Assembly (NCBI GenBank): GCA_017861285.1
Contig: JAGFXO010000001.1
Span: forward strand, 115-64,114
Origin: Geobacteraceae bacterium
GTDB taxonomy: Bacteria; Desulfobacterota; Desulfuromonadia; Geobacterales; Geobacteraceae
Direction of reading: 5' to 3'
DNA length: 64,000 nucleotides
The notes beneath the pieces were generated by a model that made no database searches, was not told the DNA's origin, and saw only the letters and a list, made by a program, of their open reading frames with translations. Positions 1-32,804 of the stretch are shown in pieces. Numbering within the stretch: position 1 is the first letter of the stretch; the number at the start of each line of letters is the position of its first letter. The translations under genes were made by a program, and so were the position numbers.

Positions 1-120
1 GGAACTCAGCGCCTGCGCGACAGCCCGCGCCTCTCCCAGGGCAGGCCCGATGGAGCCAATGGCCATGGTCATTCCCGATATAATGATTGAAACCATTCCG
101 ATGAGCCCGATGTTATCCAT
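1..120 (-). CDS. atpE: ATP synthase F0 subunit c, N-terminal 40 codons only; the gene runs off the window start
   Basis: Manual reverse translation gives MDNIGLIGMVSIIISGMTMAIGSIGPALGEARAVAQALSS. ATG is at 118-120, AAGGAG lies 8 nt upstream, and the start is 1 nt after the atpB stop. The peptide is a hydrophobic helix-1 with a GxGxG-like segment. Confidence 0.8.
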   Translation of the reverse strand, partial: MDNIGLIGMVSIIISGMTMAIGSIGPALGEARAVAQALSS

Positions 121-121
121 A

Positions 122-772
122 TCATAAATCTCCTTTTATTCCTTTTTCTTCCGTGACGTCTTTGCGGCTCCGGATCGAGGTCGCGGAGGCAATATACACC
201 ATGGCAAGCACAGCAAAAATGTACGCCTGGATCAGCCCGATCAGAAGCCCAAGCACCTGCATGACAATGGGGAAAAACAGCGGCGCGGCCAGAGCCAGAG
301 TTCTCGAAAATTCCCCGATAATCTCGAACGGCAGCATGAAGACAGACGGTTTGATATAGTGCTTCAGGTATCCTGCGACCCCCCCCTGCAGTATCCCGTA
401 AAAAGGAACGGCTATGAAGACGCATATCGCCAGTGCTGCAGTGGTGGAGAGGGAGCCTGTCGGCGGTTCGAAACCGGGAACGATTTCCAGGCTGTTGGAG
501 AAAGCGATAAACAGAAAAAGCGTGCCGACAAAGGGAAGAAAACGTCCCGGTTCCTGGCGGCTGGTCGAACGGATCTGGTTGTTCATATAGCTCACCAGGG
601 TTTCGAGCAGGTTTTGCCTGCGGGTCAATTTCGTTTGATCGGACAGTTGGCGCGTTGACAGCCACGAACCAATTACAAGAATTGCCATGACAATCCAGGT
701 ATAAAGGATGGTTGCATTGAGCTTTACCGGCCCCCACTGCCACAATATCGTGCTATCCGGACTCAGTTCCAT
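122..772 (-). CDS. atpB: ATP synthase F0 subunit a (N-type operon); the canonical RLFGN arginine segment appears absent
   Basis: 216 aa. The C-terminus IQAYIFAVLAMVYIASA and the segment EIIGEFSRTLALA are typical of subunit a. The gene sits between atpR and atpE. Confidence 0.85.
   Translation of the reverse strand: MELSPDSTILWQWGPVKLNATILYTWIVMAILVIGSWLSTRQLSDQTKLTRRQNLLETLVSYMNNQIRSTSRQEPGRFLPFVGTLFLFIAFSNSLEIVPGFEPPTGSLSTTAALAICVFIAVPFYGILQGGVAGYLKHYIKPSVFMLPFEIIGEFSRTLALAAPLFFPIVMQVLGLLIGLIQAYIFAVLAMVYIASATSIRSRKDVTEEKGIKGDL

Positions 773-1411: not shown

Positions 1412-1419
<8 letters not shown>
1108..1419 (-). CDS. atpQ: N-ATPase accessory membrane protein AtpQ (AtpI/AtpZ-like)
   Basis: 103 aa, with a basic N-terminus followed by 2 TM helices. 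It overlaps the atpC stop by 8 nt and sits in the position expected for atpQ. Confidence 0.65.
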
Positions 1420-3210
<1,791 letters not shown>

Positions 3211-3378: not shown

Positions 3379-4725
3379 TCACGAAAGGCACTGAAACAGC
3401 CCCATGCACCAGAAGCAGTCACCGCAGGGAACGGTATTGGTATAGCAATCCTGTTCGAATTCCTCGCAATAGATATACTCGCAGGGGAGCAGGTTGCAGT
3501 TGGAGCAAAAGGGATACTCGTGCTTGAGAACCTCCTCCCGAAAAGCACGATAGCCGGGATCATTCCAGATTTCCAGGATACCTTTGTCCCTCAGGTTGCC
3601 GAAGACCTTCTTGTTGACATACTTCTTTCGTCCGGAAAAATGGCATTGGAATTTGTGCCAGAGGAAGTAGCACGGGTGAATTTCGCCGTCCCAGGAGACA
3701 AACACGCCGCCATTATCTATGAAATCGCACTTCCTTTCGTTTTTGGGCGCGGCACCCGGCAGTCGCAGATCCAGCCCCGTCTCTTCGGCGACAATCCTGG
3801 CCCTGTCAAAGGTTTCGGCCAACTCGTCAGCCATGGCGACATCCCGCTTCGTCAGGTTCTCCAGGTGCAGGAATATATCGCGCGCCCTTGCCTGAGCGAT
3901 CATTTCCAGGACAAAATCCACCATCCGCTGCTCTTCCGCTGTCCTCAGATACTTGCAGTGATAGATATGAAAGAAATCGCTGATGTCTATTCCCTGCTCC
4001 TCTCCCTTCTTCCGCCATGTCGTATAAAGCTCCACCGCTTCCTGAGTATTGTAATCATAGGCAATCTGGGAGACATGACTGCTGTCGTAAGGAAGAAGAT
4101 GGGAGACGATGGCAAAGGAAACCCCCAACGAGGCGGTCCATCTGAGCACATCGGGAAGTTGATGGATGTTGTCGCGCATGAGGACGAACTCAACGCCGAC
4201 CTGAAGGTTGTTTTCGGGGTGCCGTTTCCGTGCCGTGTTCAGCGCGATGAACGCCTGCTCCAAATCTTTCACCTCACCCCCTTCCCGGATCTTGCGGAAG
4301 GTATCGGGGCAGATGGCGTCCAGGGAGAGACATATCCGGTCAAGCCCGGCCCGAACCAGTGATGACGCCCGGGTTTCATCAAGCAGGAGTCCGTTTGACT
4401 GGAAACCTACCCAGCTTCCCGGGGGCATCAGCTCTTTCCCCCTGCGGATGAAGGCTTCGAGGTCGGGATGAAGGAGCGGCTCTCCGATGCCGTTGAGGAC
4501 CAGCGCCTCGGCTTTCGACAGGGACGGTTCAAGTGCCTCGAAAGTTTCGAAAGTGAGGTCACCATCCTCCAAACCGCTTCCCATGCTCTGCTTGACGCAC
4601 ATATGGCACTTCATGTTGCAGCGGGTGGTTGTCTCCACGAACAGGCGGGACGGATAGCTCCTGAGAGCAGGCAACAAAGATATTTCAGGGTCGTTGATCT
4701 TAGTTTGCAATGCAGTGTTATTCAT
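3379..4725 (-). CDS. Radical SAM protein with a C-terminal SPASM-like Cys-rich domain
   Basis: 448 aa. CNMKCHMC (CxxxCxxC) near the N-terminus; GEIHPCYF plus CSNCNLLPC...CGDCFWC...C clusters at the C-terminus. The start codon overlaps the upstream gene's stop (ATGAATAA). Confidence 0.9.
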   Translation of the reverse strand: MNNTALQTKINDPEISLLPALRSYPSRLFVETTTRCNMKCHMCVKQSMGSGLEDGDLTFETFEALEPSLSKAEALVLNGIGEPLLHPDLEAFIRRGKELMPPGSWVGFQSNGLLLDETRASSLVRAGLDRICLSLDAICPDTFRKIREGGEVKDLEQAFIALNTARKRHPENNLQVGVEFVLMRDNIHQLPDVLRWTASLGVSFAIVSHLLPYDSSHVSQIAYDYNTQEAVELYTTWRKKGEEQGIDISDFFHIYHCKYLRTAEEQRMVDFVLEMIAQARARDIFLHLENLTKRDVAMADELAETFDRARIVAEETGLDLRLPGAAPKNERKCDFIDNGGVFVSWDGEIHPCYFLWHKFQCHFSGRKKYVNKKVFGNLRDKGILEIWNDPGYRAFREEVLKHEYPFCSNCNLLPCEYIYCEEFEQDCYTNTVPCGDCFWCMGLFQCLS

Positions 4726-4930
4726 AATTCAACTCTTCACATTTCCTTTTGATTTTGTCGATCGGCATCCGGCGGACCTTCTCCGCCATCTTTATTGCCT
4801 TGAAGATTTCCGCCGGACTCGCCCCGGCTTCGGATGCAGCATTGCAATGGTACTCCAGGCACGGTTCTCAACAGGCTGCCACCGATGCCCCTATGGCAAC
4901 CAACTCAAGGGTTTTCTTGTCAAGGGGCAC
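4718..4930 (-). CDS. AhpD/carboxymuconolactone-decarboxylase-like small protein with in-frame TGA (candidate selenocysteine) at codon 21
   Basis: Manual translation: GTG-PLDKKTLELVAIGASVAAC-[TGA]-EPCLEYHCNAASEAGASPAEIFKAIKMAEKVRRMPIDKIKRKCEELNYE-TAA. GGGAGGA lies 4 nt upstream of the GTG. TGA at 4868-4870 falls at the first Cys of the CxxCxxxH family motif. The ORF track misses it because of the TGA. Confidence 0.7.
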
Positions 4931-4944
4931 TGATCCTCCCTTCG

Positions 4945-6060
4945 CTACGGCATTGTTACATCTTCAACTTTGCACTTCATCTGGTCGGCGAAGTACTTCC
5001 GCTGGAAATAGAAGGCAAGGTTTACCAGGCTGATGAGCACCGGCACCTCGACCAGCGGTCCGATGACCGAGGCGAAAGCCTGCCCGGAATTGAGCCCGAA
5101 CACCGAAATGGCAACGGCAATTGCCAACTCGAAGTTGTTGCTGGCGGCGGTGAACGAAAGTGTCGCGCTCTTCTCGTAGTCGGTGCCGAGTTTCTTGCTC
5201 ATGTAGAAGGAGACCACGAACATGACAACGAAGTAAATGAGAAGCGGAATCGCAATCACGACCACGTCAAGGGGCTGACTCAGGATCTTGTCACCTTGCG
5301 TGGCAAACATGACCACGATGGTGAAAAGGAGGAAAATGAGGGTCAAGGGGCTGATAACAGGGGCGAATGATTTATCGAACCATTCCTTACCCTTTATACG
5401 CGTAAGACTGAAATGGGTAATTAGTCCGGCGATAAAAGGGATACCCAGGTAGATGAAAACGCTCTTGGCAATTTCACCCATGGTTATATCCACCACCGCC
5501 CCCTTGATGCCGAACAAAGGGGGAAGAATCGTGACGAAGACATAGCAGTAAACGGAAAAGAAAAGAACCTGGAAAATGGAGTTGAAAGCCACGAGACCGG
5601 CGGCATATTCACGGTCGCCGCAGGCCAGATCGTTCCAGACGATCACCATGGCGATGCAGCGGGCCATCCCCATCATGATGAGGCCGATCATATATTCAGG
5701 ATAGTTGTGAAGAAAGACGATGGCAAGCACAAACATAAGGATCGGTCCCACCACCCAGTTCTGAATCAAAGAGAGGCCGAGAACCTTCTTGTTCCTGAAA
5801 ACCAGAGGCATCTCCTCGTACTTGACCTTGGCCAGGGGCGGGTACATCATCAGGATCAGGCCGATGGCGATGGGTATGCTGGTCGTACCCACCTGAAACT
5901 TGTTGATGAGGGCCTTTGAGGCGGGCACGAAATACCCGAGAGCGAGACCGAGAAACATTGCCGCGAAGATCCAGACAGTGAGGTAGCGGTCCAGAAAAGA
6001 CAGTTTCTTCATGAGTCCTTGCATTGTTGTACGTCCTCCTTGGGGAATGAGATCAAACAA
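4945..6060 (-). CDS. acr3: ACR3-family arsenite efflux permease
   Basis: 371 aa polytopic membrane protein. The N-terminal [13 protein letters not shown] segment is typical of Acr3. It is adjacent to arsC and arsR. Confidence 0.9.
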
Positions 6061-6080: not shown

Positions 6081-6491
6081 TCAGGGCGCAAAATAAGCGA
6101 GCAAAGCCTCTTTGATTTCATCCCGGACCTTGCGGAAAACCTCCATAATCTCCTCTTCACTGCCTGTTGCCTTTGCCGGATCGGAAAAACCGATGTGTAC
6201 CCGCTCTCCCCCACCCGTAAACAGGGGACATCGATCCCGTGCGTCTCCGCACAGGGTGATAGTGTGGTCAAACTGCTGCCCGGAAAATGCATCGACATTT
6301 TTTGAACGGTGGCCGGATATGTCTATACCGATCTCCCGCAAAACCTCAATGGCCCTCGGATTGATAAATGAGGCCTCGGTCCCTGCGGAAAAGGCTTCGA
6401 GACGGTCACCAAGGAAATGATTGGCGATTCCTTCCGCCATTTGGGACCGGCAGGAGTTCGCAGTGCAGAGAAAGAGGGCTTTTTCTTTCAT
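6081..6491 (-). CDS. arsC: Arsenate reductase, thioredoxin-coupled LMW-PTPase type
   Basis: 136 aa. CTANSCRS (CX5R P-loop) plus the [11 protein letters not shown] cysteine pair. Confidence 0.9.
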
Positions 6492-6545: not shown

Positions 6546-6788
6546 TTACTTTTTCTTCCAGACAACCTTTTTACTGGATACGAGCCAATTGCATTTATTG
6601 CAGAAAAATCCCTGACTGCATTTGGAACAGATGATGATTTTTTCGCCGCAGTCGGGGCAGTAAGCCTCCATGTCGAATTCATCGTAAACGGTATAGCGGT
6701 CACAGTTCTTACAAAAAAACCTGGCTCCTTCCGAAGTAAGTTCTTTTATCATTTCCGAACCGCATTCACGACATAATCTTCGTACCAT
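6546..6788 (-). CDS. Small Cys-rich zinc-ribbon protein, function unknown
   Basis: 80 aa with five CxxC pairs (C6/9, C26/29, C44/47, C54/57, C63/66) and a basic tail. GGGAGAG RBS. Located between arsR and arsC. Confidence 0.6.
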   Translation of the reverse strand: MVRRLCRECGSEMIKELTSEGARFFCKNCDRYTVYDEFDMEAYCPDCGEKIIICSKCSQGFFCNKCNWLVSSKKVVWKKK

Positions 6789-6966: not shown

Positions 6967-7305
6967 TTACGCGCAGCGATTGTGCTGGCTAAATTCACAG
7001 AGCCGCTTTCGGTCGGCAGCGGCAACCTCCAAATCCGGAAGGTTTTCCCGAAGGGAATCGAGCAGACTGTTTTGCAGATTTTTCACGTTATCCAGTATTG
7101 AATAGTACATCCATACCCCTGCGCGCCGGTCATCCACCCATCCGGCATTCTTCAAATAGGCAAGATGCCGTGACACCGTCGACTGGGGAAGCTGCAGCAC
7201 TGCCATGATGTCACAGACACAGAGTTCCCCGTCCAGCAACAGGCAGATGATCCTCAGCCGGGTTTCATCCGACAGGGCTTTAAACATTCGGGCTGTAGTT
7301 TTCAT
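6967..7305 (-). CDS. arsR: ArsR/SmtB-family arsenite-responsive repressor
   Basis: 112 aa counted from the internal ATG at 7305; the track ORF extends to 7485. ELCVCD metalloid-binding motif and QSTVSRHLAYLKNAG wHTH. Confidence 0.85.
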   Translation of the reverse strand: MKTTARMFKALSDETRLRIICLLLDGELCVCDIMAVLQLPQSTVSRHLAYLKNAGWVDDRRAGVWMYYSILDNVKNLQNSLLDSLRENLPDLEVAAADRKRLCEFSQHNRCA

Positions 7306-19502: not shown

Positions 19503-19525
19503 AAAAAGCGCTCCGGGGAATGCCC

Positions 19526-20734
19526 CTATGCGTCCCTCCTGCGTTGCAGATACAGCATCCTGTCCAGTATGATGTCCGCAAGCTCACTTTTGAGCATCAT
19601 CGGCAGGTCCTCGACCGTCCCGTCACGAAACAGAAGCTTGACCACATTCGTATCCACCGCAAATCCGGCTCCTTCACTGCTTACATCATTAGCGACAATC
19701 ATATCCAGATTCTTCCTGCGCAACTTCTCCCCCGCGTTTTCCTGCAGATTATCAGTTTCCGCGGCGAAGCCCGCAAGGAGTCTGTCTTCTTTCATCACGC
19801 CGAGTTCCGCAAGGATGTCGGGGTTTTTAACCAGCTGCAGAGTATTTGTCGCATCTTTTTTCTTGATTTTTTCCCCACTGCGGGTCATCGGCCGGTAATC
19901 CGCAACTGCGGCGGTCATGATGGCGATACTGCTTTTGCCGAAATACCCGAGAACTGCCGACCTCATCTCCTCAGCCGTCACAACACGGACAGTCTCCACT
20001 CCATAAGGATCATCAAGGCAGGTTGGACCGGATATCAGGGTAACGGCCGCGCCTCTGCGGAATGCGGCCATGGCAAGAGCATAGCCCATCTTTCCGGAAG
20101 AGTGATTGCTGAGGAAGCGTACGGGGTCGATTTCTTCACGGGTAGGTCCGGCAGTTATGAGCACCTGTTCTCCGGCAAGGTCCTTGACGGACAGGGCGGC
20201 AACGATCTCTTCAAAGATGAACACGGGGTCCTGGAGTTTTCCCTCCCCTTCCCACCCGCAGGCAAGCATGCCCTTCACCGGCTCCACGAACAGGAACCCG
20301 TGCCTCCTGAGCTTCTCGACATTCTCCCGATAGAGGGGATTCTGGTACATATTGACATTCATCGCGGGCGCCAAAAGTACCGGTGCCCTGGTTGCCATTA
20401 CCGTCGTGGAGAGCAGATCATCGGCTATTCCGGCAGCAATTTTCCCGATGACACTCGCGGTTGCGGGGGCAATCACCAGAATGTCGGCACGGTCGGCCAG
20501 CGAAATGTGGCTTATCTCTCTCTCCGAAATGAGGTTGAACATGTCCGTATGGACCGGATTCATGGAGAGAGTCTGAAACGTCAGCGGCGCGATAAATTCC
20601 ATGGCATTCGCGGTCATGACAACGCGGACGTTCGCCCCTGCCTTCGTCAGAAGACGCAGCAGTTCTACAGCCTTATAAGCAGCAATCCCGCCGGTTACCC
20701 CGAGAACTATCTCTTTCCCTTTCAGCATTTTCAA
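19526..20734 (-). CDS. coaBC: Bifunctional phosphopantothenoylcysteine decarboxylase / phosphopantothenate-cysteine ligase
   Basis: 402 aa with an N-terminal flavoprotein domain and a C-terminal DFP ligase domain. Confidence 0.95.
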   Translation of the reverse strand: MKMLKGKEIVLGVTGGIAAYKAVELLRLLTKAGANVRVVMTANAMEFIAPLTFQTLSMNPVHTDMFNLISEREISHISLADRADILVIAPATASVIGKIAAGIADDLLSTTVMATRAPVLLAPAMNVNMYQNPLYRENVEKLRRHGFLFVEPVKGMLACGWEGEGKLQDPVFIFEEIVAALSVKDLAGEQVLITAGPTREEIDPVRFLSNHSSGKMGYALAMAAFRRGAAVTLISGPTCLDDPYGVETVRVVTAEEMRSAVLGYFGKSSIAIMTAAVADYRPMTRSGEKIKKKDATNTLQLVKNPDILAELGVMKEDRLLAGFAAETDNLQENAGEKLRRKNLDMIVANDVSSEGAGFAVDTNVVKLLFRDGTVEDLPMMLKSELADIILDRMLYLQRRRDA

Positions 20735-20777
20735 ACCTCATTGAAGACGTGAAGATCGCGAAGAAATCCTGAAGCAT

Positions 20778-32223: not shown

Positions 32224-32418
32224 TTACTTCTTCTCAGGAGCTGCAGTCTCAGTGGTGGTGGTGGTGGTTTCCGTTGTGACGGAAGACATAGGAGCCTGCG
32301 GTACCGGAGTAGCAGTCGTGGTGGTTTCGGTGGTTGTGGTTTCTTCTTTTTTCTTGCAACCAACTGCGAAAGCCAGAGCGATAACAAGGCACAGAGCTAA
32401 TGTAATCAGTTTTTTCAT
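32224..32418 (-). CDS. Small Thr-rich lipoprotein (64 aa)
   Basis: MKKLITLALCLVIALAFAVGC is a signal peptide plus lipobox. It is followed by the KKKEETTTTETTTTA...TTETTTTTTE low-complexity region. The gene has its own terminator. Confidence 0.6.
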   Translation of the reverse strand: MKKLITLALCLVIALAFAVGCKKKEETTTTETTTTATPVPQAPMSSVTTETTTTTTETAAPEKK

Positions 32419-32804
32419 TGACGATATCACCTCTTTTCTTTTCTGAATACCAAATCCGCGCAATGCACGTGGTTTTTTTCACCAGCAAACAATTGGCGAA
32501 TATACTAGCTTTAAATTAAATGTCAACATTTTTTTGCCGGCCCCAATTGTTTTTTATGCACCGTGCAGGGCGGTAACTTCGTGTATACGCTTAAAATTTA
32601 ATTATTTTGCTGTCTTAAAAAACCCCGCGGCACAACCTGTTTTTTCCTTTTCTTGTGTTTCTTCTCATAAGTTTTACGGTCAGAATCCGTATGCCACCCT
32701 GACAAAACTGTGATACTGCCAATATCAACGATACCATCCATATATGCAAACAGCAAAAAATAGTGTATATCACATATGCTAAAGAATGATCCACAGGAGG
32801 GAAC

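Follow-up and report, generated by a model that had tools for sequence, protein, structure and literature searches.

A 64,000-nt stretch of a Geobacteraceae metagenome-assembled genome (MAG; contig JAGFXO010000001.1), hereafter the window, carries an arsenic (ars) operon on its minus strand. Between the arsenite efflux gene acr3 and a radical SAM (rSAM)/SPASM gene of this operon lies an unannotated gene of 70 codons with an AhpD/carboxymuconolactone decarboxylase (CMD) core and an in-frame TGA at codon 21 (Table 1). The frame translates as VPLDKKTLELVAIGASVAAC*EPCLEYHCNAASEAGASPAEIFKAIKMAEKVRRMPIDKIKRKCEELNYE*, where asterisks mark stop codons, and ends in EELNYE*. The first-pass annotation, made from the letters of the window alone, had presented this gene as a candidate selenoprotein, and its recognition of a real AhpD-like gene is borne out. 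When scored in hidden Markov model (HMM) searches with selenocysteine (Sec, U) replaced by Cys, the protein reaches 48.6 bits against the Pfam family CMD (PF02627; cutoff 23) and 41.5 bits against TIGR00778 (ahpD_dom; cutoff 27.8). Eight homologues of 70-71 aa are 79-87% identical to it; they begin and end where it does, have the motif AACCEPCLE[YF]H in common and carry a Cys at the TGA column. The open reading frame (ORF) thus truly belongs to a family of 70-aa thiol proteins with an AhpD core, a small one that is still uncurated and has the motif E9...C20-C21-x-x-C24-x-x-x-H28.

PDB chains of CMD and AhpD proteins match the family profile with E-values of 1e-8 to 5e-3. On this profile the CxxC of the solved structures 7y4r, 5dik and 1vke aligns with positions 21 and 24, so that the TGA replaces the first Cys of the canonical CxxCxxxH motif, exactly as the first reading of the sequence had placed it. 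E9, codon 21 (TGA here, Cys in the homologues), C24 and H28 are all in register with the CxxC..H of these structures. Position 20 is an additional Cys, and the motif would read C-U-E-P-C if the TGA were decoded as Sec. The proposed translation signals are likewise found at their positions on the minus strand. The acr3 TAG (4947-4945) is separated from the GTG start by a spacer of 14 nt, CGAAGGGAGGATCA, which contains the ribosome-binding site (RBS) GGGAGGA. The start is GTG in the nearest relative (locus L128) too, and ATG at the equivalent place in the other orthologues. At its 3'-end the gene overlaps the rSAM gene by 8 nt, an arrangement kept in all CMD-bearing orthologues. Past the TGA, the first in-frame ATG, GTG or TTG is Met48, which has no Shine-Dalgarno sequence, in agreement with the earlier remark that the distal segment lacks a plausible start of its own.

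The TGA is neither an artefact of one assembly nor a sign of a different genetic code. The rSAM and Acr3 proteins of the window recur with unchanged sequence in four further samples, on one contig each (ERZ27276622, ERZ27276616, JGI 3300035675 and JGI 3300033413); exact look-ups with a 355-aa version of Acr3 and with ArsC gave no match, and the 359-aa version of Acr3 matched. The same TGA is present in the window MAG and in L125, L126, L127 and L138, which makes five independent assemblies (L136 and L137 merely repeat the ENA contigs of L126 and L125 and are not additional ones). Each of the five has an undamaged CMD gene as regards frame, start, RBS and stop, and no gene has been called in the ~220-nt gap between acr3 and the rSAM gene on any of the four other contigs. 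Elsewhere, scattered single-nucleotide polymorphisms set these contigs apart from the window, and L125 has two synonymous changes within the CMD gene itself. For a normal TGC codon to appear as TGA through faulty sequencing or assembly, one wrong base would be enough; since five assemblies with scattered polymorphisms share the TGA, this explanation is refuted and its probability is negligible. The TGA allele is fixed at the species level. As over half of the window ORFs end in UGA as their normal stop, a reassigned genetic code is also excluded.

Codon 21 is Cys (TGC) in 8/8 close homologues and in all orthologous loci. Among 146 loci surveyed for this column (44 from genomes, 80 from metagenomes, and others fetched later), no TGA was found at the first Cys outside the window species. 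The comparison of homologues that the first-pass annotation had recommended therefore returns a clean Cys column, with TGA confined to one species. The nearest relative, L128 (P0001), shares 93.4% nucleotide identity with the window gene and has TGC at codon 21. Three replacements at conserved sites are specific to the window gene (C43F, T38S and Q54R), all of them downstream of the TGA. An unassigned 70-aa ORF in L131 and L132 was considered as a CMD paralogue and rejected on examination.

The rSAM gene, which is called regardless of the state of the CMD gene, served as the anchor for sampling that state in related lineages. The rSAM clusters closest to the window are P0011, with 98% identity (the L128 lineage), and then P0012-P0016, with 83-87%. 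On a neighbour-joining tree of rSAM proteins, 6/6 other sampled lineages in the clade that includes the window and P0011/L128 lack a functional CMD gene, and the loci with an intact Cys-form CMD gene go with basal rSAM lineages. The remains range from a relic in L139, which still aligns across the CxxC region, to short gaps upstream of the rSAM gene (Table 1). Because the CMD gene is deleted or decayed in all six sister lineages, its loss is a recurrent event in this clade, and the rSAM gene does not need it to function. Frame-disrupted or truncated orthologues in place of a Cys/Sec column had been named beforehand as a finding that would speak against recoding; some relatives are indeed frame-disrupted, truncated or deleted, and other orthologues have a clean Cys. 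Across Geobacteraceae, losses of the CMD gene upstream of the TIGR04311 rSAM gene are repeated and independent.

Constraint on the gene is relaxed in the window species and its nearest relative. Between the window and L128, the CMD gene shows nine nonsynonymous differences plus the TGA and four synonymous differences (pN/pS 0.63, on small counts). Among the Cys-form orthologues themselves pN/pS is 0.07-0.12, and the gene is therefore normally under strong purifying selection. At the family omega of ~0.1, 1.4 nonsynonymous differences would be expected (P = 1.8e-5), and the nine observed agree with neutral evolution (p = 0.5). The neighbouring rSAM gene has kept its constraint between the same two lineages: over its initial 396 nt there are three synonymous and two nonsynonymous differences (pN 0.007; Fisher p = 0.0018 vs the CMD gene). 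When the changes are polarised with outgroups, T38S, C43F and Q54R fall on the window branch and L8P, A45T, A49V and K59R on the L128 branch. As both branches carry such changes, constraint was relaxed or altered already before the TGA arose.

AhpD-type selenoproteins are known in anaerobes, Geobacteraceae included, as the first-pass annotation had stated. In all catalogued AhpD/CMD selenoprotein families, Sec occupies the position of the second Cys, giving CxxU (2026 review, PMC13188914). Against the curated selenoprotein HMMs, the window protein scores 30.1 bits for NF041047 (cutoff 110), 37.9 for NF041537 (cutoff 510) and 35.6 for NF045649 (cutoff 380). In Mycobacterium tuberculosis AhpD, attack on AhpC is made by the second Cys (Cys133), which would explain why Sec sits at the second Cys in proteins of this type. 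An in-frame TGA at the second Cys also occurs in relatives of the window gene, with the sequence GC[AD][DE]*L[ED]YH in L002, L003 (Geobacter hydrogenophilus), L004 and L047, while L085 reads NCQA*LVYH. In G. hydrogenophilus (NZ_JAHCZI010000005.1; L003:6001-6228), this CxxU AhpD-core gene of ~75 aa directly follows arsR-arsC-acr3. With its TGA recurring in four lineages, the gene of L002, L003, L004 and L047 looks, from its sequence, like a genuine selenoprotein gene. Its assignment to the curated GSU3128 family was rejected (36-38 bits against NF041047, where the cutoff is 110), and the family to which it belongs appears to be uncurated.

The 64-kb window contains no tRNA, tRNA-Sec included, and no Rfam family match, and no SelA, SelB or SelD domains were found in its larger ORFs. 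Scans of the window for other TGA-interrupted genes gave no credible candidate. By analogy, the host organism is likely to be Sec-competent, since Geobacter species are Sec users with SelD and ~8 selenoproteins each (PMC1794560) and the CxxU relatives stand in the same operon context.

Bacterial Sec insertion sequence (bSECIS) elements have a loop of 3-9 nt with G in the first two loop positions, usually G[G/U], at 16-37 nt from the UGA, and a minimum free energy (MFE) of at most -7.5 kcal/mol (PMC13188914). Folding of the sequence past the UGA gives a SECIS-like hairpin of -13.0 kcal/mol (Table 1); its apical loop, UGCA, has 4 nt, the second of them G, and lies 21 nt past the UGA. The hairpin core (4831-4857), 14-40 nt past the U of the UGA, accounts for -5.0 to -5.6 kcal/mol. 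The hairpin lies within the numeric limits, but its loop lacks G[G/U] and its upper stem has 3 bp followed by a mismatch. The folding suggested by the first-pass annotation thus yields a hairpin, though not one that is distinct from those at Cys codons. Cys-form L128 has a nearly identical hairpin sequence (one change), and all Cys orthologues have compliant hairpins after their TGC, of -13 to -19 kcal/mol, which equal or better that of the window. In a null test on 196 in-frame Cys codons of window genes, 6% reach -13 kcal/mol and 30% reach -7.5 kcal/mol. The SECIS-like hairpin is not discriminating between Sec sites and Cys or background sites. Simple MFE folding of 76 nt surrounding the UGA, no better than shuffles (z = -0.21), was superseded by the geometry-aware scan, and Rfam returned nothing relevant, either at the gathering threshold over the whole window or in E-value mode over positions 4600-5000.

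Two further hairpins belong to this comparison. One (Table 1) is stronger and is kept in all orthologues; it is 44 nt from the UGA, outside the range of 16-37 nt. The other is shared by the CxxU relatives, where it has the loop CGUGA, 24 nt after their UGA, over the codons AAREAG. Cys-form orthologues keep nearly the same hairpin, GCCGCC-CGCGA-GGCCGGC, over AAREAG. In L129, L131, L001 and L045 (codons 31-36, e.g. L129:10091-10108) it is ~1 base away from the CxxU hairpin, and its distance from the second Cys codon equals that of the CxxU SECIS hairpin. The Cys-form hairpin may be a fossil SECIS, or may simply follow from the need to encode AAREAG. This ancestral SECIS-type hairpin (loop CGUGA or CGCGA) has been destroyed in the window and L128 by the change of AAREAG to AASEAG. 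Substitutions specific to the window and L128 create the pairs 16-38, 17-37, 20-33 and 24-29 of the SECIS-like hairpin; they were rejected as Sec-specific evidence, because Cys-form L128 carries the same sequence.

On balance, and with moderate confidence, the TGA at codon 21 is taken to be an ordinary nonsense mutation, and the AhpD-like protein not to be made. The Cys21 codon TGC has changed to TGA in this species, where the change is fixed. Translation would end after 20 residues, leaving the AhpD-like protein absent, and the rSAM protein would be translated from its own weak Shine-Dalgarno, the purine-rich AAAGGAAATGTGAAGAG upstream of its ATG, as in CMD-less relatives, in which a clearer AAAGGAG stands upstream of the rSAM ATG. 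The comparisons show directly what the gene is, that the TGA is present and fixed, that constraint is relaxed and that losses recur, whereas termination at this UGA and separate initiation of the rSAM gene are inferred. Such a lesion would be tolerated because the CMD gene is dispensable in this part of the tree, being deleted or decayed in every sister lineage sampled and evolving in a near-neutral manner in the window species and L128; judged from the sequences, it is probably being lost in the window lineage. As the gene is dispensable and decaying in this clade, an inactivating mutation is to be expected, whereas a de novo conversion of Cys to Sec is a rare event. In relatives, the intact protein is predicted to be a minimal AhpD-core trithiol (C20-C21-x-x-C24), co-transcribed with the arsenic resistance genes and translationally coupled to the rSAM protein.

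Several observations weigh against a nonsense allele. Among the one-step nonsense paths in the ancestral gene, 1/30 reaches codon 21 and 2/30 reach the CxxC, an unusual place for a random lesion to fall; however, all six one-step paths to TGA land on Cys codons, so that a TGA on Cys is automatic for any TGA mutation here. There is no second disabling lesion, and the frame, RBS, start and 8-nt overlap are intact, as would be the case if the lesion were very recent or the gene functional. The hairpin is numerically compliant, with its loop 21 nt after the UGA, near the 24 nt of the CxxU relatives. The TGA is fixed in five assemblies of different samples, relatives in the same operon context use Sec, and so do Geobacter species (PMC1794560). 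Finally, the intact L128 copy evolves equally fast, and the acceleration, seen there too, could be a functional change rather than decay.

Possible, yet on present evidence unlikely, is that the gene encodes a new selenoprotein, with SelB decoding UGA21 by means of a 47-nt hairpin that starts 4 nt past the UGA. The product would be a C-U-x-x-C protein, an AhpD-core selenol/thiol protein with a substrate related to arsenic, its translation being coupled to that of the rSAM/SPASM gene. A clean Sec/Cys pair at the canonical redox Cys, with a chance of 1/30 to 2/30 under random nonsense mutation, speaks for this, as do the hairpin within the numeric bSECIS limits (loop 4 nt, spacing 21, -13.0 kcal/mol), the window/L128 substitutions that form its pairs, the intact ORF with its TGA fixed in five assemblies, the CxxU sister-family genes in Geobacteraceae ars operons and the SelD and ~8 selenoproteins of Geobacter (PMC1794560). 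CU dipeptides are also described for selenoproteins of organometallic systems (10.1101/2022.07.06.499078). The gene might then represent a Cys-to-Sec conversion caught near its origin, with a SECIS remodelled from the ancestral hairpin and moved upstream along with the UGA, a scenario that must be called doubtful; equally tentative is the corollary that the fast evolution of the window/L128 clade reflects a functional shift and not decay. However, no second lineage with TGA at the first Cys was found among the 146 loci, and Sec at the first Cys would be unlike every known AhpD-type selenoprotein. The hairpin is also present in Cys-form L128, is no better than those of the Cys orthologues and has a loop without G[G/U], and the ancestral SECIS-like hairpin has been destroyed. 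The gene evolves in a near-neutral manner, has lost the conserved C43 and is lost in 6/6 sister lineages. The first-pass annotation had considered recoding more plausible than a pseudogene; a TGA in one species, CxxU elsewhere, a hairpin that does not discriminate, near-neutral evolution and the sister losses argue the other way. Quite improbable is a leaky hypomorph, in which UGA21 is a stop and near-cognate read-through by tRNA-Cys or tRNA-Trp provides a little full-length protein, which may suffice where selection on the gene is weak. UGA is the leakiest stop codon, the downstream ORF is intact and the allele is fixed, but near-neutral evolution and the losses in relatives imply little selection on the product.

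If the TGA is a nonsense allele, the locus is a case of ordinary gene loss, yet a cautionary one for selenoprotein prediction, in that a decaying gene can show both a Sec/Cys pair at CxxC and a hairpin within bSECIS limits. False Sec-like signals of this kind are possible because this stretch folds by its very nature and because any single change that yields TGA falls on a Cys codon. Two classical criteria, the Sec/Cys pair and the bSECIS hairpin, are formally satisfied here, while the comparative evidence points in the opposite direction. If the codon were nevertheless read as Sec, the gene would offer a rare view of the birth of a selenoprotein, and no earlier AhpD-core selenoprotein would have had Sec at the first motif position. 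It would also link selenium to the AhpD-core/rSAM module of Geobacteraceae arsenic operons. This module of acr3, the 70-aa CCxxC AhpD-core gene and the TIGR04311 rSAM/SPASM gene is uncurated, and the CxxU sister group is equally so.

Table 1. Features of the CMD locus in the window and the state of the CMD gene in sister lineages. Positions without a locus prefix refer to the window.
Feature	Position	Strand	Basis or remark
AhpD/CMD-core gene with in-frame TGA at codon 21	4718..4930 (read 4930..4718)	-	Sequence and translation, HMM, homologues
RBS GGGAGGA (4940-4934) and GTG start (4930-4928)	4928..4940	-	Sequence
TGA replacing first Cys of CxxCxxxH	4868..4870 (read 4870-4868)	-	TGC in all orthologues
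SECIS-like hairpin, 4-50 nt past U of UGA, -13.0 kcal/mol	4821..4867	-	Folding
Second hairpin GCCGGGGCGAGUCCGGC, loop GGCGAGU (starts GG), codons EAGASPA	4812..4828	-	Folding
Codon 43, TTC (Phe)	4802..4804	-	Cys (TGC) in 8/9 homologues
ATGAATAA, 8-nt overlap of CMD TAA (4720-4718) and rSAM ATG (4725-4723)	4718..4725	-	Kept in all CMD-bearing orthologues
Radical SAM/SPASM "putative metalloenzyme maturase"	3379..4725	-	TIGR04311, 655.8 bits; NCBI MBP1751170.1, Geobacteraceae MAG
ACR3 arsenite efflux transporter (359 aa in the gene calls of public contigs)	4945..6024	-	TIGR00832, 1.5e-135
Thioredoxin-type (LMW-PTP) arsenate reductase ArsC	6081..6491	-	Domain search
80-aa Zn_ribbon_6 protein	6546..6788	-	Conserved in operon
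ArsR/SmtB regulator (112 aa in the gene calls of public contigs)	6967..7305	-	Domain search
P0012 (L139)	L139:3860-4008		Relic: internal deletion, frameshift, Cys codons destroyed, CTTTCCGAGCCGTCC vs TGTTGCGAACCGTGC
P0013 (L140)	L140:640-717		Last ~40 nt of CMD left
P0014, P0015 (L142), P0016 (L141)	L142:155-190; L141:923-1013		acr3 to rSAM gap of 36-91 nt
P0028 (L143), widespread lineage	L143:2950-3000		arsR-arsC-rSAM-arsA/D-acr3; 51-nt gap before rSAM

On homologue contigs the gene order is always Zn-ribbon, ArsR, ArsC (low-molecular-weight protein tyrosine phosphatase, LMW-PTP, type), Acr3, CMD (70 aa) and rSAM/SPASM (448 aa). The 80-aa Zn_ribbon_6 protein is kept between arsR and arsC throughout these operons. 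The TIGR04311 rSAM/SPASM gene sits inside ars operons across Geobacteraceae (the window and loci L125-L146), in the order arsR-arsC-acr3-[CMD]-rSAM or, in L143, arsR-arsC-rSAM-arsA/arsD-acr3, and this embedding suggests an arsenic-related role. The 90% identity cluster of the rSAM protein has two members only and thus yielded no additional strains, and a literature search on the ars/rSAM module in Geobacter found no paper describing it. Directly downstream of the module is an alternate (N-type) F1F0 ATPase operon (window 1412-3207, minus strand, continuing in L125:11519-18197), which includes the beta (TIGR03305) and epsilon (TIGR03166) subunits and AtpR. In L125 this operon is followed by a second rSAM/SPASM gene (560 aa) and a CDF cation-efflux gene. 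Elsewhere in the window, positions 32224-32481 (minus strand) encode what may be a small lipoprotein, MKKLITLALCLVIALAFAVGC..., whose low-complexity tail is rich in Thr and Glu, within a 700-nt stretch otherwise without a long ORF. Two ORFs, of 410 aa (19520-20752, plus strand) and 224 aa (69-743, minus strand), have no Pfam match at 1e-5; the latter has no NCBIfam match either and may be a spurious frame over the N-type ATPase operon region.

The closest known counterparts of the window gene are its Cys-form orthologues (P0001-P0008; L001, L045, L046 and L128-L135), which have the same 70 codons, synteny and 8-nt overlap at 79-87% amino acid identity, but differ in having TGC at codon 21 and in evolving under strong purifying selection (pN/pS 0.07-0.12). 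The CxxU relatives (L002, L003, L004 and L047) are 58-67% identical to the window protein, have ~75 aa, share its ELVAIGASV helix and LEYH and stand immediately behind arsR-arsC-acr3. Their TGA is at the second Cys, and an ArsP-like permease, a thioredoxin (Trx) and DsbD lie downstream instead of the rSAM/SPASM gene. M. tuberculosis AhpD has a proton relay of Glu118/Cys130/Cys133/His137 (PMC3141380), the Glu...Cys-x-x-Cys...His spacing of which equals that of E9/C21/C24/H28 in the window gene. It and the solved CMD proteins 7y4r, 5dik and 1vke are 96-177 aa long, whereas the window protein, at 70 aa, lacks the N-terminal helices, has the extra Cys20 and is found in an ars operon instead of an ahpC context.

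The known AhpD/CMD selenoproteins comprise NF041047 (GSU3128, "distant AhpD homolog"), TIGR01926, PF02627 (CMD-like), NF041238, MduS and the AhpD domain of NF041537 (ArsM/AhpD), all listed as CxxU (PMC13188914). They share the AhpD-core fold and a CxxCxxxH-type motif with the window protein and occur in anaerobes including Geobacter, some of them linked to arsenic (ArsM/AhpD). In contrast to their CxxU, the window TGA would give UxxC, in a protein that has no TGA-bearing orthologues and scores far under the family cutoffs. Neither an AhpD-like selenoprotein nor a nonsense pseudogene is a novelty in kind, and only Sec at the first Cys (C-U-x-x-C) would be a new variant.

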